Positions 5,386 through 48,582 of a DNA stretch of 60,198 nt are shown piece after piece (within the stretch, counting starts at the first letter, position 1; the number at the start of each line of letters is the position of its first letter). Origin of the DNA: a phage; the NCBI GenBank assembly GCA_018175315.1, contig GCA_018175315.1_4769.1. One strand, given 5' to 3'. The notes beneath the pieces were generated by a model. That model ran no database searches. It saw only the letters and a list, made by a program, of their open reading frames with translations, and had not been told where the DNA came from. The position numbers and the translations under genes were made by a program.

Positions 5386-5598
5386 ATGATCACTTTGGAA
5401 GAAGCGAAACAGCATCAGGAAATGATCACTGAACTGGTAGAAAAACTTAATTCTTCAATTGCCCACGCTACTATGCAGGGCGTGCATGTAGAATTAGATA
5501 TTAATTACGTTAGCACAATTGGAGCGCGCAATCACCCAATTGTGATGTCAAACGTAACAATTAACCCTTGTGATATTAAAGGTGAAGTAAATGAATAA
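5386..5598 (+). CDS. hypothetical protein (inside deazaguanine operon)
   Basis: 70-aa ORF with GGAGG RBS immediately after upstream stop. Confidence 0.45.
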   Translation: MITLEEAKQHQEMITELVEKLNSSIAHATMQGVHVELDINYVSTIGARNHPIVMSNVTINPCDIKGEVNE

Positions 5599-6313
5599 AT
5601 TAGATAAAATGGTATTCCCTGTAAAAAATCATAACTCCGCCGTTGTCGTCCTGTCTGGCGGCCAGGACAGTGTGACCTGTTTGGGTCTTGCACTTAATAA
5701 CTATGACAAAGTCTACGCTATTGGTTTTGCATACGGTCAACGTCATAACATTGAGCTGGCTTGTGCTAATCAAATCTGTAAAGAGCACGATGTCCCGTTT
5801 GTTGTCTTTGAATTACCTGCTTTGAAACAGATTGGTAATAGTGCTTTAATCGGGAACGAAGGGGATGTTAACGAACATCACGAACAGCACAACAACCTTC
5901 CGGCAAGCTTTGTACCAAACCGTAATGCTCTTTTCCTGACTACCGCGCACGCCTACGCGCAGAAGGTTGGAGCCCGATATGTGGTTACAGGCGTTTGTGA
6001 AACAGACTATAGCGGTTATCCGGATTGCCGCCGGCAGTTTGTAGACATGCTTGAAGCTACATTAAACGTTGCATATGAAACAGATATTTATTTCGTTACC
6101 CCGCTTATGCGTTTAAATAAAGCAGAAACGTTTGAGCTGGCGGATAAGGTTGGTTTCTTAACCACAGTGATTGAACAGTCCCATACTTGCTATAATGGCG
6201 TCCGTCGCACTCTGCATGACTGGGGATATGGTTGCGGTGAATGTCCTGCGTGCAAACTGCGTGCTAAAGGGTACAGCGAATTTATGGATAACGCTTACAG
6301 CAAACACGTTTGA
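5591..6313 (+). CDS. queC: 7-cyano-7-deazaguanine (preQ0) synthase QueC
   Basis: PP-loop SGGQDS; C-terminal Zn-binding cysteines (CYNG...CGECPAC). Confidence 0.85.
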   Translation: MNKLDKMVFPVKNHNSAVVVLSGGQDSVTCLGLALNNYDKVYAIGFAYGQRHNIELACANQICKEHDVPFVVFELPALKQIGNSALIGNEGDVNEHHEQHNNLPASFVPNRNALFLTTAHAYAQKVGARYVVTGVCETDYSGYPDCRRQFVDMLEATLNVAYETDIYFVTPLMRLNKAETFELADKVGFLTTVIEQSHTCYNGVRRTLHDWGYGCGECPACKLRAKGYSEFMDNAYSKHV

Positions 6314-6433
6314 TCTTACCGCGAAAACCGCACCGCTAGCGCATTGTTTAGGGTGCGGGAACCCAACTATACTACTAAAGCTTTTAAACCCAACAACCAG
6401 CGAATAACGCTGTTAAAACTGGAGAACAAAAGT

Positions 6434-6913
6434 ATGAAATTTATCGTTGCTTATCTGGCTGCAATCACATTCGTAAATCTGGGCTTTTCCTACCTTCCAA
6501 TGCTTAACACGCCTCTTGGCGTAGTCCCCATGATGGCTTTCTTTGTAGGTATTATCTTTGTTCTGCGTGATTACGCACAGCGTAACGCTGGCAAAGGCGT
6601 TATCCCTGCAATGATTGTGGGTTGCATCCTTAGCTGGGTATTTGGGGATCCTGCTGTTGTAGTTGCATCCGTTGCATCCTTTGCTCTTAGCGAGTTTGCG
6701 GACTATGCGGTATACACGATTACTAAGAAGCCTTTCCATCAACGAGTATTTATCAGCTCTTTGGTAGCTGTACCGATTGACTCCATTGTGTTCTTAAGTA
6801 TTATAGGTATTGTTAATCCGGGATCAATGGTAGCAATGAGCTTAAGTAAGTTCACAGCATCCGCTATCCTTTGGGTTGTTTACGAAGTTCATTCACGTAC
6901 AGCAAGAGCGTAA
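6434..6913 (+). CDS. small polytopic membrane protein, possible queuosine-precursor transporter (YhhQ/QueT-like) by context
   Basis: GGAG RBS before ATG 6434; about 5 hydrophobic segments; embedded between queC and queD. Function is inferred from context only. Confidence 0.4.
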   Translation: MKFIVAYLAAITFVNLGFSYLPMLNTPLGVVPMMAFFVGIIFVLRDYAQRNAGKGVIPAMIVGCILSWVFGDPAVVVASVASFALSEFADYAVYTITKKPFHQRVFISSLVAVPIDSIVFLSIIGIVNPGSMVAMSLSKFTASAILWVVYEVHSRTARA

Positions 6914-6915
6914 AA

Positions 6916-7473
6916 ATGAAAGATAATTTGAATAAAATTTGGCACCAACACGACGGTAAAGGAATGCCTATTTTTCTTCGTAATGAGAAGTTTGAAGTTC
7001 TTTTGCGCAACGGCACACACGTTAAGAATCTATTACATGGATGGGATTGGGCTATAGAAGGGCGTTCGGCTATGGATGAGAATAGCCCTTATAAAGTTCA
7101 AGATATTATAGCCTGGAGATATATTGTTGCGGATGATTACGTCAAACAATCTATTGAAGCAAATTTGCCCGACTGGAGAATTGATAAAACCGCAATTTTT
7201 ACGAAATATGAACCATCTAAAATTCCCATGAATAAATATCAGAAAGTTATTTATGGTAAAGATGAAAACGGCAATGTTGTAAAATGCATCGTGGACGTGT
7301 ATGATGTCTTGGAAGCTTGGAAAACAACTAACCCAGCTTTGCAGCATTTGATTAAAAAAGCGTTGCAGCCTGGCGAACGGGGTCATAAACATCTGGTAGA
7401 AGATTTGAAAGACATTATTGCGTCGGCGCAGCGTGCGTTAGAAATTGAACAGTCTAAAGAGGTATTAAAATGA
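6916..7473 (+). CDS. hypothetical protein (inside deazaguanine operon)
   Basis: 185-aa ORF from ATG 6916, tightly packed between the membrane protein and queD (ATGA overlap with queD); no recognisable catalytic motif. Confidence 0.5.
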   Translation: MKDNLNKIWHQHDGKGMPIFLRNEKFEVLLRNGTHVKNLLHGWDWAIEGRSAMDENSPYKVQDIIAWRYIVADDYVKQSIEANLPDWRIDKTAIFTKYEPSKIPMNKYQKVIYGKDENGNVVKCIVDVYDVLEAWKTTNPALQHLIKKALQPGERGHKHLVEDLKDIIASAQRALEIEQSKEVLK

Positions 7474-7991
7474 GTTATACAGTAATTCGTTCACATGAAA
7501 TTTGCGCTGGACATCGTGTTGTAGGGCATGAAAGCAAGTGTCGCCACCTTCATGGTCACAACTATAAGTTTCACTTTAAGGTTGCGCCGAAAGGTTGTAC
7601 GGACGTTAAAGTTATTCGCTGTGGCACACTTCGCGAAAAAGGTGGGCTGGACGACGTGGGACGCGTGATCGATTTTAGTGTGGTTAAAACTACGCTGTGT
7701 CAGTGGCTGGAAGATAACTGGGACCATAAGTTCCTGCACTGGGAGCATGATCCGCTCATTGAGAGCTTAAATAAATTTGTAGATACGACAACTATGGACA
7801 ATATGTCGCATCGGGATCAAATGGATTATTTAGGTTCGCTGGTGTCACTTCCATTCAACCCGACCGCTGAAAACTTAGCTGCGTACATGGTTGAAGTAAT
7901 TGGACCACAGCTGCTTGACGAACATGGTGTTCAACTTGTAGAATGCACCATCGAAGAAACTTCGAAATGTCACGTAAACTATAGCCTGTAA
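7470..7991 (+). CDS. queD: 6-carboxy-5,6,7,8-tetrahydropterin synthase QueD
   Basis: Cys/His Zn-binding signature CAGHRVVGHESKCRHLHGHNYKF typical of the QueD/PTPS family. Confidence 0.8.
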   Translation: MSYTVIRSHEICAGHRVVGHESKCRHLHGHNYKFHFKVAPKGCTDVKVIRCGTLREKGGLDDVGRVIDFSVVKTTLCQWLEDNWDHKFLHWEHDPLIESLNKFVDTTTMDNMSHRDQMDYLGSLVSLPFNPTAENLAAYMVEVIGPQLLDEHGVQLVECTIEETSKCHVNYSL

Positions 7992-7992
7992 T

Positions 7993-8652
7993 ATGACCAC
8001 ATTAACAACAAGGAAACTGCAAACCATGCCAAAATTTACTATTGATAATGAAGGTACTCAATTCCGTATTGCTCGCGCGGTGCGTACTTTACTAACTCAG
8101 ATTGAAGATTGCACTGAATTACGTCCAGGATTAGCAGAGACACCAGACCGTGTCGCTAAAGCTTATGCTACATGGTTTAGCGGTTACGATGTAGATATTG
8201 CTGGTCTGTTTAAAACCTTTGAGGATGGGGCGGAAAACACCAATGAAATGGTCATTGTCCGTGATATTCCTGTTTACAGTCATTGTGAACACCATATGGC
8301 CCCTATTATCGGTCGCGCTGTCGTGGGGTATGTTCCTAACGGTCGCATCGTGGGGCTCAGTAAGCTGTCTCGCGTTGTGGATGCTTTTAGTCGTCGACTG
8401 CAAGTTCAGGAACGTCTTACTAACCAGATTGCAGACGCTATTCAGGAGCATTTAAACCCGAAAGCTGTATGTGTTTATATTGACGCCAAGCATATGTGCA
8501 TGGAGGCAAGAGGAATCAAGCAGGTTTGTGGCTCGAGCACTATTACGAAAGCTTTCCGTGGAGCTACAGAGCTGGAACATGGTAGTGATATTGGTAAACA
8601 ATGGCGCCAAGAATTTTTAGAATCTGCTACTAATTATCAACGGATTCGTTAA
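7993..8652 (+). CDS. folE: GTP cyclohydrolase I FolE (alternative start at ATG 8026)
   Basis: Conserved CEHH and GLSK motifs (YSHCEHHMAPIIG...GRIVGLSKLSRVV...RLQVQERLT). Confidence 0.85.
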   Translation: MTTLTTRKLQTMPKFTIDNEGTQFRIARAVRTLLTQIEDCTELRPGLAETPDRVAKAYATWFSGYDVDIAGLFKTFEDGAENTNEMVIVRDIPVYSHCEHHMAPIIGRAVVGYVPNGRIVGLSKLSRVVDAFSRRLQVQERLTNQIADAIQEHLNPKAVCVYIDAKHMCMEARGIKQVCGSSTITKAFRGATELEHGSDIGKQWRQEFLESATNYQRIR

Positions 8653-8653
8653 T

Positions 8654-9112
8654 ATGCCAAGGGTCTATACTAAAAAGCCGATGTCCGAAAGACTAAGCAA
8701 ATACGTTATAGACCCTTCTACTGGTTGCTGGAACTGGACTGGTAGTAAGGATAAAGACGGTTACGGTAGAATGATTAGTGGTTCCAAAGGTGAACGAATT
8801 TTTAGTTTTGCGCATCGCGAGAGCTATAAACTGTACAAAGGAGAAATTGGTTTACCTGATTCCGCTACAGGGTGCGTTCTGCATACATGTGATAATCCGT
8901 CTTGCATTAACCCAGATCATTTATATTTAGGAGATCAAAAACAAAACGGGTTGGATAAGAAAGTTAGAGGGAGGGCAAGGACACGTCCACGGTTTGGGAA
9001 AGATAACCCAATGTATCAAAAATATGGTGAACTGAATCCAATGTACGGGAAACATCATACAGAGGAAACCAAACGTAAAATTAGCGAAACTAAGAAAGCT
9101 AATTTTAAATAA
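8654..9112 (+). CDS. HNH homing endonuclease
   Basis: HNH_3-type pattern (GCWNWTGSKDKDGYGRM ... HRESYKLYKG ... CDNPSCINPDHLYLGDQKQN); inserted between folE and dpdA. Confidence 0.7.
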   Translation: MPRVYTKKPMSERLSKYVIDPSTGCWNWTGSKDKDGYGRMISGSKGERIFSFAHRESYKLYKGEIGLPDSATGCVLHTCDNPSCINPDHLYLGDQKQNGLDKKVRGRARTRPRFGKDNPMYQKYGELNPMYGKHHTEETKRKISETKKANFK

Positions 9113-9130
9113 TAGATAGCTTTACAGATC

Positions 9131-9166
9131 AAGCCCATATCGGTCATAATACTGGTATGGGCTTTT
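9131..9166 (+). terminator. terminator-like hairpin with T-run (weak)
   Basis: AAGCCCATA ... TATGGGCTT with 16-nt loop followed by TTTTT, between HNH and dpdA. Confidence 0.3.
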
Positions 9167-9191
9167 TAGTCATTGGAGGTTTATTTAAGAT

Positions 9192-10112
9192 ATGAATGTA
9201 TTCATGGCGGCTGTGTATACTAACGGCTATATGCCTGGCCAGCAGCGTTATGAAAAGCTGTCTGAGCATGAGAAAAATATCACGCGCAATCTGCCCCATA
9301 TTTTGGAATCATACCACTACGTTGGGCGTCAGAAGTATGTTGATCAGATGCGTGCGGACGGGGCTAAAGTGTTTCTCGACTCCGGTGCATTCTCCGCGCA
9401 CTCGTTAGGTGCTCACATTGATATTGTTGAATACTGCGAATACATTAAGCGTAACAAAGACATCCTTCGCGTAGAAGATGGTGCGGTGATGGCATCGGTG
9501 CTCGATGGTATCGGTGATCCGCTACAAACCTACCGTAACCAGCTTGAAATGGAAGCACGCGGTGCTAAACCGTTACCTTGCTTTCACTTTGGGGAGGACT
9601 TCCGCTATCTTGAATACTACATGAAGAACTACGAATATATCACCATTGGGGGTATGGTAGGGCGTTCCACGGACACGCTTAAGACTTGGCTTGACCGCAT
9701 GTGGGACAAATATATTTGCGACGGTAGCGGACGTGCTAAGATTAAACTTCATGCGTTTGGTATTACGTCCACAACCATTATGGAGCGTTATCCGTGGTAT
9801 AGCTGCGACTCATCCTCCTGGATACAAGCGGCAGCGTTTGGAAGTGTGGTTACTCCTCCGTGGGGCCCAATGCGCGTATCCGATAAGTCACCGGACCGCC
9901 ATCATTTTGGTAAGCATGTTTCAACGTTAACTGAAATTGAACAAGACGCTGTCCTTAAATACCTTGAGCAAAACGGTTTCACTTACGAACGTTTATCAAC
10001 AATTTATGAATCACGTGCTGCCTTCAATTTATGGGCTTATGGTGTAATTGCTGCAAACATTAACGCTACCCATGACGGCACATTCCGTGATCGTGTAATG
10101 GAGTTGTTCTGA
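9192..10112 (+). CDS. dpdA: DpdA-like 7-deazaguanine DNA transglycosylase (TGT superfamily)
   Basis: TGT-like motifs (FLDSGAFS, LHAFG, YSCDSSSW); adjacent to the preQ0 biosynthesis genes. Confidence 0.8.
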   Translation: MNVFMAAVYTNGYMPGQQRYEKLSEHEKNITRNLPHILESYHYVGRQKYVDQMRADGAKVFLDSGAFSAHSLGAHIDIVEYCEYIKRNKDILRVEDGAVMASVLDGIGDPLQTYRNQLEMEARGAKPLPCFHFGEDFRYLEYYMKNYEYITIGGMVGRSTDTLKTWLDRMWDKYICDGSGRAKIKLHAFGITSTTIMERYPWYSCDSSSWIQAAAFGSVVTPPWGPMRVSDKSPDRHHFGKHVSTLTEIEQDAVLKYLEQNGFTYERLSTIYESRAAFNLWAYGVIAANINATHDGTFRDRVMELF

Positions 10113-10339
10113 TGGCTAACTTAAGAAGACCAAAAGGTAAACGTAAATATACTCACACAGGCGTAAGAATTAATTATTACGGTGAAAACAGAGTAGTATT
10201 TCTCCACAAGACACCTAAGCAGTGGCAGGATCCGTCAGGTACATGGTTTAATGCACAAGGAAAACAAATGGGACTTTATGGATACCCTCCAACCTGTGAA
10301 TTAGATTTAACCACAATTAGAGCAATCGAGGATCGCTAA
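10112..10339 (+). CDS. hypothetical basic protein
   Basis: 75-aa ORF, ATG overlaps dpdA stop. Confidence 0.45.
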   Translation: MANLRRPKGKRKYTHTGVRINYYGENRVVFLHKTPKQWQDPSGTWFNAQGKQMGLYGYPPTCELDLTTIRAIEDR

Positions 10340-11292
10340 TGTTAGACGCTCTTAAATTTGTTCAAGGCTCCGTCGCTAAAAAGGAACTGGTAGAAGGGCT
10401 TACCAGCTTTCTTATCCGTGATGGACAGGTACAGGGCTTTAACGGTGTTATTGCACTGGGTAGTCCTATTGAGCTGGATATTGATTGCAAGCCCGAAGCT
10501 GGGCCTATGATTAAAGCTATTTCAAACTGTGACGAAACCGTACAGTTAACAATGATGGCTAACGGTAAACTTAATATCAAGTCCGGGCCGTTTCGTGTTG
10601 CTATACGCTGCATTGATAAAGAAACGCCGCACGTATTCCCTGAAGGTGATTTATACGAAATAGACGGTGCTCGCTTCGTACACGGTGTGAAGTCCGTTGC
10701 TCCGTTTGTAGGCTCAGATGCATCCCGCCCGTGGGCTTGCGGTATTCTGATTAATAACGGTAGCCTGTTTGCTACAAATAACGTCACCATTGCGGAATAT
10801 TGGTTTGGTAATCAATTCCCTATTGACTGCATAATACCGTCTGTTGCTATTAAAGAAATACTGCGCATTAAAGCTAACCCGACGCATATTCAGGTTAGCA
10901 AGAATAACGTAACGTTTCATTATCCGGAAGGTCGCTGGTTGCGGACACAGCTTATTGATGCGGAATGGCCCGATATACGTCGTATTTTAAATGTTCAATG
11001 CAATGCACATCCTGTTGATCCAGGTCTTTTTGAAGGCTTGCATAAAATTAAACCGTTCGCAGAAGACCGACCGCGTGTATATATTGAAAACGGTCTAGCC
11101 CGTACTCACTATGATGATGCAGAAGGTGCAAGCTTCGTATTACAGGACCGCACAATAACGGGAGTGTACAATATTGACATCCTGCTATTGCTTGAAAATG
11201 TGGTTAAGACGGCGGACTTTAGTTTATATCCGCAACCTTGCGCATTCTTTGGGGAAAATCTTCGCGGTGTATTAATTGGAGAACGTGTCTAA
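10339..11292 (+). CDS. DNA polymerase sliding clamp (DnaN/beta-clamp-like)
   Basis: QLIDAEWPDIRRIL resembles the beta-clamp KLVDGRFPDYRRVLP motif; N-terminus beta-clamp-like; directly upstream of the polymerase. Confidence 0.55.
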   Translation: MLDALKFVQGSVAKKELVEGLTSFLIRDGQVQGFNGVIALGSPIELDIDCKPEAGPMIKAISNCDETVQLTMMANGKLNIKSGPFRVAIRCIDKETPHVFPEGDLYEIDGARFVHGVKSVAPFVGSDASRPWACGILINNGSLFATNNVTIAEYWFGNQFPIDCIIPSVAIKEILRIKANPTHIQVSKNNVTFHYPEGRWLRTQLIDAEWPDIRRILNVQCNAHPVDPGLFEGLHKIKPFAEDRPRVYIENGLARTHYDDAEGASFVLQDRTITGVYNIDILLLLENVVKTADFSLYPQPCAFFGENLRGVLIGERV

Positions 11293-13277
11293 TGCGGACA
11301 GATGCTATTGGTTTCTTTTGGCAGGACTTACCGCCTGAGCCAAAAGCAAAGAAAGAAAAAGTTAAACGTTTACCGCCGGAGCGCACTTGGGAGCGCCCGG
11401 ATTATCTACCTAACCTTGAGGAAGCGCGGAACTTCCAATACAACCTGTATACGCAGGATGAACTTATTCAAGCATGGATTAACCGCGAACCGCTTGTATA
11501 CGATATCGAATGTTATCCAAACTATTTCTTAATTGCATTTCGCGGAGTACGAACTAAGAAAGTTGTCTACTTCGAGATGTATCACGGTTGTAGTTTGAAT
11601 TGCTTGTTACTTAACTGGGTAATGACAAACTTCCTTATCGTAAGCTTTAACGGTAACGGGTACGATATGCCCATTGCTACGCTTGCGCTTAACGGCTGCT
11701 CTAATGCTCAGCTTAAAGATGCAACCGATAAGATAATCGTGGAAGACTGGCGTCCTTCCGATGTGTTAAAGAGTTACCGTCTTAAGCGTATGCAGAACGT
11801 TAACCACATTGATATTATGGAAGTGTTGCCTGGGTCCGGTGGTTTGAAACAATACGGCGGACGTATGCATACTCGCCGTATGCAGGATTTACCGTTCAAG
11901 CCTAATACAATGTTGACGCAAGACCAGATGCTTATTGTGCGATGGTACTGTATTAACGACCTTGTACAGACGGAAGAATGTTTTATTGCATTACAAGAAC
12001 CTTTGCACCTTCGTGAAATTATGTCGCAAGAATACGGTGTGGACCTGCGTTCGCGCTCCGATGCACAAATTGTAGAAGACGTAATTAAGCACGAAATCCA
12101 AGCGTTAACGGGCGTGCGCCCACAGCGTCCGCAAGTTTATCCTGGAACAAAGTATGCATACAACATACCGGACTTTATTCGTTTTCAAACGCCTTTAATG
12201 AATAGTGTTTTGGATATTGTTCGGGACTGTCGCTTTATTGTTAGCGATAACGGTGGTGTTAGCTTACCACCTGCATTAACAGGTCTTGAGATCAAGATTG
12301 CGGACGGTGTCTACCGTATGGGTATTGGTGGTTTGCATAGCTCCGAAGAGTGTGCTGGCCACGGTAAAGAGCCTGGTATCAAAAAGCGGGACATTGACGT
12401 AACGTCTTATTATCCTTCAATCATTCTTAATCAGGGCTTATATCCAGAACAGTTGGGACCAGCGTTCCTTCGTGTTTATAAGAGTATTGTAGATCGTCGT
12501 ATTGCAGCTAAGCACGCAGGGGACAAGAACACAGCCAACACGCTGAAGATCGTCATTAACGGATCGTTCGGTAAGTTGGGGTCCATGTGGTCTGTACTGT
12601 ACGCTCCGCAATTATTGATACAAGTTACATTAACCGGACAGCTTTCACTGTTGATGCTTATTGAAGCATTTGAGTTAAATGGTGTTAAAGTAATTTCGGC
12701 TAACACGGATGGCATTGTGGTTAAGTATCCAGACCACATGCAGGACTTCGTTGATAATATGATCAAGTGGTGGGAGTCTGTGACAGGTTTTGAAATGGAA
12801 TCCACTTATTATGACAAGCTATACAGTGCAAACGTTAACAACTATGTAGCTGTCAAGGAACCTGATGCAGAAGGTAACATTGAAGTCAAGCGTAAAGGTT
12901 GGTTTGCCAAGACAGGTCTTCAAAAGAACTGTACTGGCGAAATCATTATGGAAGCTGTATGTGAATGTTTGGCCCACGGTACGCCTGTTTCTCGTACTAT
13001 ACGCAATTGCAACGATATTAGAAAATTCATTATCCTACGTGCAGTAAAAGGCGGCGCGGTATGGAATGGCGAATTTTTGGGTAAGGTTGTACGCTGGTAT
13101 TTAAGCACCAATGAAGAAACCCCTGAAATAATCTATGCTAACTCAGGCAACCGTGTAGCTGGTAGCTCGGGTGGTGTCCCGATCATGACGCTACCGGATA
13201 AAGTACCGGACGACATAGATTACGACGCTTATATAGCTAAGGCTGAAAAATATCTCGAAGACATGGGATACGCCTAA
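11292..13277 (+). CDS. DNA polymerase with 3'-5' exonuclease domain (family-B-type motifs)
   Basis: Exo motifs YDIECYP and SFNGNGYDMP; polymerase motifs DVTSYYPSII (A), KIVINGSFGKLG (B), ANTDGI (C). ATG 11292 overlaps upstream stop (TAATG); ORF track begins earlier. Confidence 0.75.
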   Translation: MRTDAIGFFWQDLPPEPKAKKEKVKRLPPERTWERPDYLPNLEEARNFQYNLYTQDELIQAWINREPLVYDIECYPNYFLIAFRGVRTKKVVYFEMYHGCSLNCLLLNWVMTNFLIVSFNGNGYDMPIATLALNGCSNAQLKDATDKIIVEDWRPSDVLKSYRLKRMQNVNHIDIMEVLPGSGGLKQYGGRMHTRRMQDLPFKPNTMLTQDQMLIVRWYCINDLVQTEECFIALQEPLHLREIMSQEYGVDLRSRSDAQIVEDVIKHEIQALTGVRPQRPQVYPGTKYAYNIPDFIRFQTPLMNSVLDIVRDCRFIVSDNGGVSLPPALTGLEIKIADGVYRMGIGGLHSSEECAGHGKEPGIKKRDIDVTSYYPSIILNQGLYPEQLGPAFLRVYKSIVDRRIAAKHAGDKNTANTLKIVINGSFGKLGSMWSVLYAPQLLIQVTLTGQLSLLMLIEAFELNGVKVISANTDGIVVKYPDHMQDFVDNMIKWWESVTGFEMESTYYDKLYSANVNNYVAVKEPDAEGNIEVKRKGWFAKTGLQKNCTGEIIMEAVCECLAHGTPVSRTIRNCNDIRKFIILRAVKGGAVWNGEFLGKVVRWYLSTNEETPEIIYANSGNRVAGSSGGVPIMTLPDKVPDDIDYDAYIAKAEKYLEDMGYA

Positions 13278-13287
13278 ATTCTACTTG

Positions 13288-13312
13288 CAGACCCTTCGCG
13301 GGTCTGTTTTAA
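13288..13312 (+). terminator. rho-independent terminator after polymerase gene
   Basis: Stem CAGACCC / GGGTCTG, loop TTCGC, then TTTTAAT. Confidence 0.6.
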
Positions 13313-13341
13313 TATGTACATACAGTAAGAGGAGATACAAA

Positions 13342-13626
13342 ATGAGTTTAGTAGACGATTACAATAAAGGTAAAATCGACGTGGTGGAGCTTAACCGTCA
13401 GCTTAATAAACAAAATGAAGAACGCAAACAAGGTAAATACCTTACAATGATTGTTGCGCTTATCTTCACTGTTATTGGGGGATGTGTTTACGGCTACATT
13501 AACCACACTGTTGAAGTTGGCAACGAATGTCGCGCTAAATATCCAATTCACGTTGGGGTAACTCCACAGGAAGACATTGATGCGCTTCTGGAACTTCAAG
13601 CCTTATGTCGTAAAGGGAAAGCATAA
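13342..13626 (+). CDS. hypothetical membrane protein
   Basis: GAGGAG RBS before ATG 13342; one hydrophobic segment (LTMIVALIFTVIGGCVYGYI). Confidence 0.45.
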   Translation: MSLVDDYNKGKIDVVELNRQLNKQNEERKQGKYLTMIVALIFTVIGGCVYGYINHTVEVGNECRAKYPIHVGVTPQEDIDALLELQALCRKGKA

Positions 13627-46974: not shown

Positions 46975-47586
46975 ATGTCTAAAGTAACTCACCGCGAACA
47001 GGACAAAATGCGTTACACCATGAAAACGAATGCACGCCGCGCCCTTAAGACCCGTTGGGGCCAGGTTGCACGCGATGCACACGAGCAGTTAATCCATCAG
47101 GACGAGATCGGTTTTTACATCGTCGAGAAGGAAGTCCTTCAGGTACTGCGCGACCATAAAAAAGCGCAACAACCGGAGCAGAAAGTCCCGGCACCAACCG
47201 CCGCGCCAGCTGCCAGCGTCTCGGTACTGCGCCCGATGGTAAATCCGGAAATCGTCAAAAGCTGCCTCGAAGCTTTGGAGCAGGAGGAAGAGAAAGATAT
47301 GAAACACGCAAAAGCTGCCACGCAGGTTTCTGAAATCAAAATTGAAGAGCCAAAAGCTGCCGCGCCAAAACAGGATGCAAAAGCTGCTCGCTGTGATTTC
47401 AAAAATGGCGCTCGCAAGCCTCTGAAAGGAAAAACTGCCGAAGTGTGGGCAATGGGCGACAAACTTTTAGCCGAACTGGGCCGCACGCCGGAGCTGAAAG
47501 AGATGAAAGCTGCAATGCCTTCTTACAACGGGACAACGGTTGCCATTCAGTTCTACGCTTGGAGAACTTATCATGGACTTAAATAA
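46975..47586 (+). CDS. hypothetical protein
   Basis: AAAGGAG RBS before ATG 46975; 203 aa, charged and Ala/Pro-rich. Confidence 0.55.
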   Translation: MSKVTHREQDKMRYTMKTNARRALKTRWGQVARDAHEQLIHQDEIGFYIVEKEVLQVLRDHKKAQQPEQKVPAPTAAPAASVSVLRPMVNPEIVKSCLEALEQEEEKDMKHAKAATQVSEIKIEEPKAAAPKQDAKAARCDFKNGARKPLKGKTAEVWAMGDKLLAELGRTPELKEMKAAMPSYNGTTVAIQFYAWRTYHGLK

Positions 47587-48092: not shown

Positions 48093-48422
48093 CTATTTCA
48101 AATAAAGATTTTCAATCATGTCGTTCTTCGGGTCGTTGATATACTTCCCGAAGACCGCACCTTTACCCTGTGGGCCGTGGAACATTTCATAAACGACTCG
48201 AGCTCTTAAGACTTTACGGTTTTCACCTTGGCAAATAGGTGCTAAGCAAATTTTACAATGAAGATGCGGAGCACAAACATCTTTAACTTCGTCACCTTTG
48301 GATATGCCGTATTTCTTAAAGTCCTTCTTCCAGAATAAATCTCCATCCTTATACTCAAAATATTTATTCCATTTTGGCTCTTTCTTCCACCAGTGTTTTT
48401 TATAATCCCATTCAAGACTCAT
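48093..48422 (-). CDS. HNH endonuclease (putative)
   Basis: GGAGTG RBS before ATG 48422; INDPKNDMIENLYL resembles the HNH_3 H-x-D...N...NL core. Confidence 0.55.
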   Translation of the reverse strand: MSLEWDYKKHWWKKEPKWNKYFEYKDGDLFWKKDFKKYGISKGDEVKDVCAPHLHCKICLAPICQGENRKVLRARVVYEMFHGPQGKGAVFGKYINDPKNDMIENLYLK

Positions 48423-48582
48423 ATTCACTCCAAACAATAGTTTAATTTTGCGCGCTACGTAAGACAGCCTCCTATAGACTTGCTATTGCTGTGGAGGCTG
48501 CCCGTGTTACCGGACCTCTGCAATAACTCCTCTCTGCCTTAATGCAGATTATAGCTTGATATACCTTCCGATCACAATAGTT

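Follow-up and report, generated by a model that had tools for sequence, protein, structure and literature searches.

Stand-alone homing endonuclease genes are known from T-even phages, for example MobE between nrdA and nrdB, and SegF/SegG. Such genes are wedged between conserved genes of the same pathway, have a patchy distribution and co-convert flanking markers. I-HmuI of Bacillus phage SPO1 (PDB 1U3E), in contrast, is an intron-encoded nickase, in which an N-terminal His-Me finger nuclease is followed by DNA-binding elements of the NUMOD3 helix type and an extra C-terminal helix-turn-helix domain. Here, an HNH endonuclease gene located between folE and dpdA, at positions 8654-9112 on the plus strand of a phage DNA of 60,198 nucleotides (nt) (contig GCA_018175315.1_4769.1; referred to as the window), was compared with these systems and with related phage genomes. 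We consider it likely that the gene is a free-standing homing endonuclease gene, and that it belongs to a clade specialised for the 3'-terminal codons of folE in 7-deazaguanine clusters of phages. The T-even genes MobE and SegF/SegG belong to a different sequence family and to different phages. Unlike them, the HNH insert sits within the final codons of its putative target gene, which it provides with a replacement C-terminus, and it ends on the stop codon that this gene used before.

The HNH gene and its protein

The open reading frame (ORF) extends from an ATG at 8654 to a TAA at 9110-9112 and encodes 152 aa. Its ATG is located 1 nt past the folE stop codon (8650-8652), and it ends 79 nt before the dpdA ATG at 9192. 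An earlier note on this DNA had assigned an HNH_3-type endonuclease to exactly these coordinates, and database searches agreed: the protein matched phrog_1872 ('endonuclease') at 4.5e-40 and several 'HNH endonuclease' PHROGs, and NUMOD3 (PF07460) was matched with 33.8 bits (3.1e-8), passing the Pfam cut-off of 20.4. A large protein search yielded 242 homologues at E≤1e-5, and a precomputed PF13392 match was present in 11 of the 19 closest clade proteins (P0001-P0019). The ORF is a genuine gene and no chance reading frame.

Residues C25, Y37, H77, C79, D80, C84, P87, H89, L90 and N98 were invariant in 78 aligned homologues, and W26, W28, H54, R55, N81, N86, D101 and R107 were nearly so, with N81 and N86 conserved in at least 90%. 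The His-Me finger motif reads CxLHxCDNPxCINPxHLxxG...N. According to the alignment and a structural model, the catalytic His, the structural Asn and the metal-ligand Asn/His of the beta-beta-alpha motif are all present. The catalytic core was assigned from residue conservation and the model to residues 74-100 (CVLHTCDNPSCINPDHLYLGDQKQNGL; 8873-8953, plus strand), and is followed at 8990-9094 by two NUMOD3 repeats (NPMYQK at residue 118, NPMYGK at residue 128) and then a C-terminal helix. The AlphaFold model had a mean predicted local distance difference test score (pLDDT) of 88, with strands at 74-77 and 90-93, then a helix at 95-104, and the C-terminal helix at 137-151.

For structural comparison, the model was searched against the PDB using Foldseek. 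The top five matches, and the only credible ones, were I-HmuI (probability 1.00) and I-PpoI (probability 0.89-0.98); the next match had a probability of 0.06, and all matches below the top five were at about 0.25 or less. I-HmuI was the best match both by structure and by profile; in both proteins, a His-Me finger nuclease forms the N-terminal part and DNA-binding elements come after it. Unlike I-HmuI, the HNH protein is free-standing, has 152 aa, ends after two NUMOD3 repeats and one helix, and is about 20% identical in sequence. I-PpoI (His-Cys box) formed the second group of structural matches, and a Cys/His-rich His-Me finger is common to both proteins; I-PpoI differs in being a eukaryotic, intron-encoded and dimeric enzyme. 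NCBIfam gave a sub-threshold 'group I intron endonuclease' match in the NUMOD3 region, and a single-sequence search of PDB chains returned nothing at E≤1. No intron or other RNA family was found by an Rfam scan of 7400-10200. Since folE reads to its own stop codon and Rfam detected no group I intron in this region, the gene is free-standing. Its product is predicted to be an HNH_3-like His-Me-finger nuclease with two NUMOD3 DNA-binding repeats.

Occurrence, cassette junctions and the putative target

When 50,697 phage records were searched by tblastn, the sole close copy of the HNH gene was found in slur01 (100% identity); the next best match was below 48%. The slur01 copy is annotated as gp76 'endonuclease' (YP_009201619.1, NC_028831) and its protein is 100% identical to that of the window, with position and flanks alike. 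Outside the HNH locus, the slur01 genome is about 5% diverged from the window and mosaic. By blastn, 8600-9200 matched slur01 at 100% throughout, and 32 other distinct phages over 9103-9179 only. The gene is absent from 32 of 33 cultured Seuratvirus-like phages, slur01 being the one carrier. Presence is thus polymorphic among relatives; carriage of the gene by all of them, which would have refuted the earlier note, does not hold. This supports the insertion of a mobile homing endonuclease into a conserved operon, as had been proposed in that note. The 32 phages lacking the gene keep queC, queD, folE and dpdA, and K4PH164 and K9PH25C2 are likewise devoid of the HNH gene. As the pathway is kept without it in all these phages, the gene fails as a core component of the 7-deazaguanine cluster.

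A second pair differing in presence was found in another Queuovirinae lineage, with the metagenomic sequence L016 carrying the gene and the cultured Klebsiella phage K4PH164 lacking it. Flanks are 97-98% identical in this pair and folE 86%, and the junction is the same. The final 130 nt of folE and the HNH gene of L016 have no counterpart in K4PH164, and the L016 HNH ORF (ending in ...KACK*) and K4PH164 folE agree at 17 of their final 18 nt.

Relative to HNH-less alleles, the window has a net insert of 478 nt (8629-9106, plus strand). This cassette consists of a new FolE tail, the folE stop codon and the HNH ORF without its own stop codon. In every HNH-less relative, folE terminates with ...TGGCGCCGGGAGTTCCTTGAAGCT TGT AAA TAA (FolE ...EFLEACK*), and TAGATAGCTTTACAG and a hairpin are located directly 3' of the stop codon. 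The HNH-less end GAA GCT TGT AAA TAA corresponds in the window to GAA TCT GCT [ACT...TTT] AAA TAA, the junctions being GAA TCT GCT [ACT AAT TAT CAA CGG ATT CGT TAA T ATG...GCT AAT TTT] AAA TAA TAGATAGC. The ancestral last codon and stop of folE (AAA TAA, 9107-9112, plus strand), the same as the folE end in HNH-less phages, are reused as the end of the HNH ORF, and the FolE terminus is changed from ...EFLEACK* to ...EFLESATNYQRIR*. The replacement C-terminal tail, SATNYQRIR, occupies 8623-8652 (plus strand) together with the translation-initiation region of the HNH gene. From these junctions, the insertion point is placed inside the last codons of folE and not at a clean intergenic site. Of the previous claim that the gene sits exactly between folE and dpdA, the order folE-HNH-dpdA was correct, but the insert begins within folE codons. 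Clean insertion between adjacent folE and dpdA genes was rejected for this reason, and because most relatives have another ORF after the terminator.

Homologous extended FolE tails were found in other contigs with the HNH gene, namely AANNLERVG*, ARDNTQRRA* and ARSSTSQRG* (EFLQAANNLERVG, EFLQFARDNTQRRA and EFLQLARSSTSQRG*). Since the tail codons of these contigs hold GGAG(G/A) a few bases ahead of the HNH start, the tail appears to be the ribosome-binding region of the cassette read in the folE frame. The Shine-Dalgarno sequence of the window is weak (ACGGAT, versus GGAGG in L017 and L021). At 8595-8623, about 30 nt upstream of the HNH start, substitutions of the HNH haplotype create a promoter-like TAAACA-N17-TAGAAT (9/12 positions). 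Its TAGAAT is missing in HNH-less alleles, and in this region equally strong matches are as frequent as expected by chance.

Across 5600-13500, window and slur01 differ at about 4-7% of positions, with very divergent blocks in queD. Within 8359-9340 (plus strand) there is 1 difference in 982 nt, at position 8487 (Poisson P≤5e-12 even at a background rate of 3%), and this near-identity tract is read as a putative co-conversion tract around the HNH gene. Left of approximately 8360, the window is near-identical to Dru_SM1, KurtStettler and/or SLUR63, not to slur01; from approximately 8370 it is slur01-like. Compared with 13 HNH-less relatives, identity drops toward the junction from about 100% (8370-8470) to about 85%, about 70% and finally 48-80%, while slur01 stays at 100%. 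The 3' segment of folE at 8505-8628 (plus strand) has substitutions unique to genomes with the HNH gene. These are mostly synonymous, for example GGCAGCTCT to GGCTCGAGC and CGG GAG TTC CTT GAA GCT to CAA GAA TTT TTA GAA TCT.

The left half of a putative homing site (TGGCGCCAAGAATTTTTAGAATCTGCT; 8602-8628, plus strand) lies within this segment. At 8609-8625, 7 of 17 aligned positions differ from the HNH-less sequence CGGGAGTTCCTTGAAGCT, and 3 nt are inserted. We infer TGGCG(C/G)CG(G/C)GAGTTCCTTGAAGC(T/C)TGTAAAT(A/G)A as the likely target, because it is conserved in HNH-less Seuratviruses and K4PH164 despite hypervariable folE sequence just upstream, and because it is split by the insert and its left half is heavily substituted in genomes carrying the gene. 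The hypervariable stretch (8560-8610, folE codons ~190-206) exhibits many substitutions and indels of 6-12 nt among HNH-less relatives, and the ~30 nt after it are strongly conserved. It may bear the traces of several rounds of cleavage and repair, or encode a surface loop that tolerates change.

Homologues of the HNH protein include a tight group (P0001-P0019; E≤1e-41, 54-99% identity, 136-163 aa), after which there is a sharp drop to E ~1e-24. Nine clade proteins were looked up in metagenome assemblies (P0001, P0002, P0003, P0004, P0005, P0008, P0010, P0016 and the truncated P0027), and all nine were encoded directly 3' of folE and upstream of a dpdA homologue (307-318 aa), with abutting or overlapping stop and start codons. 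In IMG/VR, all 6 loci with at least 51% identity, among them L037 (the genome of slur01 itself), were flanked by folE and dpdA, versus 0 of 74 at ≤48%. Two proteins just outside the clade had terminase and SNF2 helicase as neighbours. Altogether, 15 of 15 clade members (identity of at least 51%), but 0 of 76 more distant homologues, were located at the 3' end of folE.

Pairwise identities of HNH protein, FolE and DpdA were 99%, 86% and 90% for L017 and L022; 81%, 91% and 90% for L020 and L022; 69%, 72% and 93% for L016 and L039; and 79%, 77% and 70% for the window and L039. By this measure the relationships of the HNH proteins are incongruent with those of the FolE and DpdA flanks. Between the window and an allele found in L030 and L031, there are 10 differences in 459 nt; nine fall on third codon positions and one changes P112 to S, and the third-position bias indicates that the HNH gene is under purifying selection. 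Frameshifted alleles were detected as well. L028 (4001-4276) and L029 (436-711) have an A deleted at 8786 and are otherwise identical to the window across 8300-9394, and in L022 (4001-4444) a 1-nt deletion relative to the 99%-identical L017 copy removes the NUMOD3 part.

Terminator block, variable slot and surrounding genes

The terminator-like hairpin that had been described after the HNH gene was confirmed by folding. Its 14-bp stem (9131-9144 / 9151-9164) encloses the loop CATAAT and is followed by a T run, and 9100-9195 folded with -29.6 kcal/mol (z = -4.96). A consensus terminator scan had missed the hairpin at 9131-9164, probably because the 14-pair stem takes up two T's of the tail, and folding was used instead. 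A promoter-like TTTACA-N18-CATAAT (equivalent to TTACAG-N17-CATAAT) is present at 9121-9150 and matches at 10/12 positions. Promoter-like matches in the region are at chance level, with 17 found versus 19.6 expected in shuffled sequence. The -10-like hexamer CATAAT of this site is the exact loop of the 14-bp terminator hairpin.

Promoter-like site and hairpin with T run are part of a conserved intergenic block of 77 bp (9103-9179, plus strand), which also includes GGAGG at 9175-9179. In the 32 HNH-less phages, the block is 97-100% identical and located directly 3' of folE. Its conservation exceeds that of the surrounding coding sequence (~80-95%). Depositors annotated a terminator and a promoter here in SA80RD, and a terminator in Seurat. 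The diverged lineages L016, L017 and L020 have an analogous TATAAT, GC-rich hairpin and T run in the same place. Because of its 97-100% conservation in every HNH-less relative, the block is ancestral and not cargo of the insertion, and its functionality is argued from this conservation rather than from the match to a promoter motif. Arrival of the terminator with the HNH gene was rejected, since the terminator is kept in all HNH-less relatives. The earlier note had suggested that dpdA may need its own promoter. A promoter-like site is indeed present; however, its motif is of chance level, and because the block predates the HNH gene, any such need would predate it as well.

The slot after the terminator is occupied in most relatives by an ORF of 68-77 aa (phrog_20065), and is empty in SA80RD, slur01 and the window. 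SA80RD is the only relative in which folE, terminator and dpdA are directly adjacent, and it is the closest 'empty site' on the right-hand side. The earlier note had asked whether folE and dpdA are adjacent in genomes without the HNH gene; in general they are not, as most relatives have the 68-77 aa ORF or one of 185 aa between them. The 185-aa ORF was found in KS_A3 (L006 2237-2794), ECP2304 (L007 2252-2809) and STP-SP5 (L008 2329-2886). It matched phrog_1035 'endonuclease VII' at 2e-16 and gave no Pfam match; visual inspection shows a classic HNH motif at its C-terminus, EVDHIIPL...GLH...NLQ...N..K. In L020 (1187-1675) and L021 (1606-2094), a slot ORF of 162 aa, whose N-terminus resembles the 185-aa protein by eye, is located beside a NUMOD3-type HNH gene. 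The interval between folE and dpdA can accommodate two unrelated HNH genes and seems to be a hot spot of mobile nucleases. Loss of the small ORF via recombination between two GGAGG sites was rejected, since the sequence after GGAGG differs (TTTATTTAAGAT vs ACCATTCCAAAA), and since the same arrangement without the HNH gene in SA80RD also speaks against it.

For the wider context, 7400-10400 was compared by megablast, which returned 36 records of E. coli-type Seuratvirus phages with about 80-96% identity. These relatives (Queuovirinae) include CAjan, Seurat and slur01, and the window agrees with Seuratvirus genomes in size (60.2 kb) and in gene order. All genes listed in the following are on the plus strand. 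Upstream of the cassette are queC (5591-6313), a yhhQ-like transporter gene (6344-6913), an ORF of 200 aa with unassigned function (6871-7473), queD (7470-7991) and folE (GTP cyclohydrolase I, 219 aa; 7993-8652), which matched PF01227 (GTP_cyclohydroI) at 1.1e-63 and is annotated as FolE in all relatives. Downstream are dpdA (7-deazaguanine DNA transglycosylase, 306 aa; 9192-10112) and the genes for a sliding clamp (10339-11292) and a DNA polymerase (11238-13277). DpdA matched phrog_887 at 8e-96, and a Pfam scan of it gave no match; in relatives it is annotated as DpdA or queuine tRNA-ribosyltransferase. The protein of the window is 100% identical to DpdA of CAjan, SA80RD and slur01. Within queD, 7570-7900 is sharply mosaic, with 38-88% identity to slur01 and most relatives, and blocks of 94-100% identity to Dru_SM1, KurtStettler and SLUR63. 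The leader and first ~50 nt of dpdA (9165-9241) are a distinct variant common only to slur01, SA80RD and L028, with about 80% identity to the majority type, whose dpdA overlaps the upstream small ORF.

Two further HNH genes had been predicted in the window. One was found at 47540/47573-48055 (plus strand; HNH_3 6.8e-16, phrog_99 7.7e-64); it is present in CAjan, KS_A3 and KS_S4 and missing from many relatives. The other, at 48093-48437 on the minus strand, is only weakly HNH-like (phrog_99 8.5e-6, no Pfam match). It apparently has Tyr at the position of the expected catalytic His and may be a degenerate copy. Conversely, slur01 has a further HNH gene that the window lacks, gp89 (L004 610-1116; phrog_99 1.8e-52). 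It is located between genes for a Cas4-like exonuclease and a helicase, is missing at approximately 897-905 of the window, and represents a further presence/absence polymorphism between the two genomes.

Alternative explanations and implications

If the gene acts as a homing endonuclease, it would be co-transcribed with folE, with transcription stopping at the pre-existing hairpin, and termination-reinitiation at TAA-T-ATG would give low-level translation. In cells co-infected by an HNH-less relative, the protein would attach through its NUMOD3 repeats and nuclease domain to the uninterrupted 3' end of folE (approximately TGGCGCCGGGAGTTCCTTGAAGCTTGTAAATAA) and nick or cut nearby. Its own genome would be spared, as the insert splits the target and the left half has 7 substitutions. 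Recombinational repair from the genome carrying the gene would then copy the cassette along with adjoining parts of folE and dpdA. Copies would decay by frameshift and be lost over time, resulting in a patchy distribution.

Several observations weigh against this interpretation. The HNH_3 (PF13392) match of the protein (19.3 bits, E=9e-4) is under the gathering cut-off of 24.8, and that of zf-His_Me_endon (residues 75-99, 22.8 bits) is under the Pfam cut-off of 27. Foldseek matches were weak (I-HmuI E=2e-3, none at E≤1e-3, template modelling (TM) score ~0.4), as were those of a PDB profile search (I-HmuI E=0.14, I-PpoI E=0.8). The right end of the tract was rejected as a conversion boundary and is uninformative, since dpdA is 96-100% identical in all relatives, and ordinary recombination could have moved the tract, given the general mosaicism of Seuratviruses exemplified by the queD blocks. 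The frameshifted alleles are represented by few contigs each, possibly from the same samples, and the deletion at 8786 lies in an A3 run, so that sequencing errors are possible. Conservation of the HNH protein across lineages is about equal to that of FolE and DpdA, which also fits long vertical retention under a role beneficial to the phage. Finally, cleavage by the HNH protein, its target sequence, nicking versus double-strand cutting, and biased inheritance are all deduced.

In one rival reading, the gene is not selfish but a domesticated accessory of the 7-deazaguanine module, which might cut unmodified DNA of hosts or competitors, the phage's own dPreQ0-modified DNA being protected, or nick DNA to assist base exchange by DpdA. 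The exclusive location of the clade between folE and dpdA would fit, although strict site association is exactly the outcome expected of a homing endonuclease. In L025 and L041, the gene lies tight against the genes on either side or overlaps them, and a terminator is missing; its identity across lineages (58-76%) is equal to or above that of FolE and DpdA; and the third-position bias indicates purifying selection. However, 32 of the 33 cultured Seuratvirus-like phages keep the pathway without the gene, and HNH-less CAjan is reported to have dPreQ0 at about one third of its guanines in a preprint that cites earlier work (bioRxiv 10.1101/2021.03.08.434280, citing Hutinet et al.). Persistence of frameshifted alleles and incongruence of the HNH tree with the flanks also speak against domestication, which we regard as quite improbable. 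A related idea, equally doubtful, is that the nuclease reads the modification state of DNA and cuts unmodified or differently modified DNA of competitors or hosts at the folE end. It is based on the restriction of the clade to 7-deazaguanine clusters and on its conservation, as high as that of FolE and DpdA.

Alternatively, the gene could be the stranded remnant of a homing endonuclease, inactive or without targets and carried along by ordinary recombination. The weak Shine-Dalgarno sequence of the window, the rarity of the gene among relatives and frameshifted alleles in near-identical backgrounds are in line with this, and general mosaicism could account for the shared tract. Yet the ORF is intact with every invariant motif residue present, nine of the ten substitutions relative to L030 affect third codon positions, and intact putative targets are abundant in co-circulating HNH-less Seuratviruses, which makes a stranded remnant unlikely. 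Small HNH proteins that help in packaging are common in siphoviruses, and given its size the protein might be thought to assist the terminase similarly to gp74 of HK97. But its gene is located in an early replication and DNA-modification region (folE, dpdA, DNA polymerase genes) and not by terminase or portal genes, it is of the HNH_3/NUMOD3 type typical of homing enzymes, and it is dispensable, being absent from 32 relatives. A packaging function was rejected on location and dispensability and is very hard to credit.

The gene was not discussed in the literature searched on Seuratvirus homing endonucleases, on dpdA/folE/HNH and on slur01, nor is it mentioned in the Seuratvirus comparative-genomics paper (PMC5758909) and the BASEL collection paper. 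The HNH gene itself is of an ordinary phage homing endonuclease kind, already labelled 'endonuclease' in the slur01 record. New are the discrete clade, confined to the final folE codons of phage 7-deazaguanine clusters; the organisation of a cassette with a substitute FolE tail that apparently holds its own ribosome-binding site and with a borrowed folE stop codon; and the folE-dpdA gap as a likely hot spot able to hold two unrelated HNH genes. The locus offers a defined and testable putative target of a homing enzyme whose substrate has to be hypermodified DNA, and a marker for recombination between Queuovirinae. For annotators, folE C-termini and apparent operon structure differ between genomes with and without the HNH gene. 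If the nuclease did sense modification, it would be an inter-phage weapon in genetic linkage with the modification module, and its cassette would in addition remodel the C-terminus of FolE.

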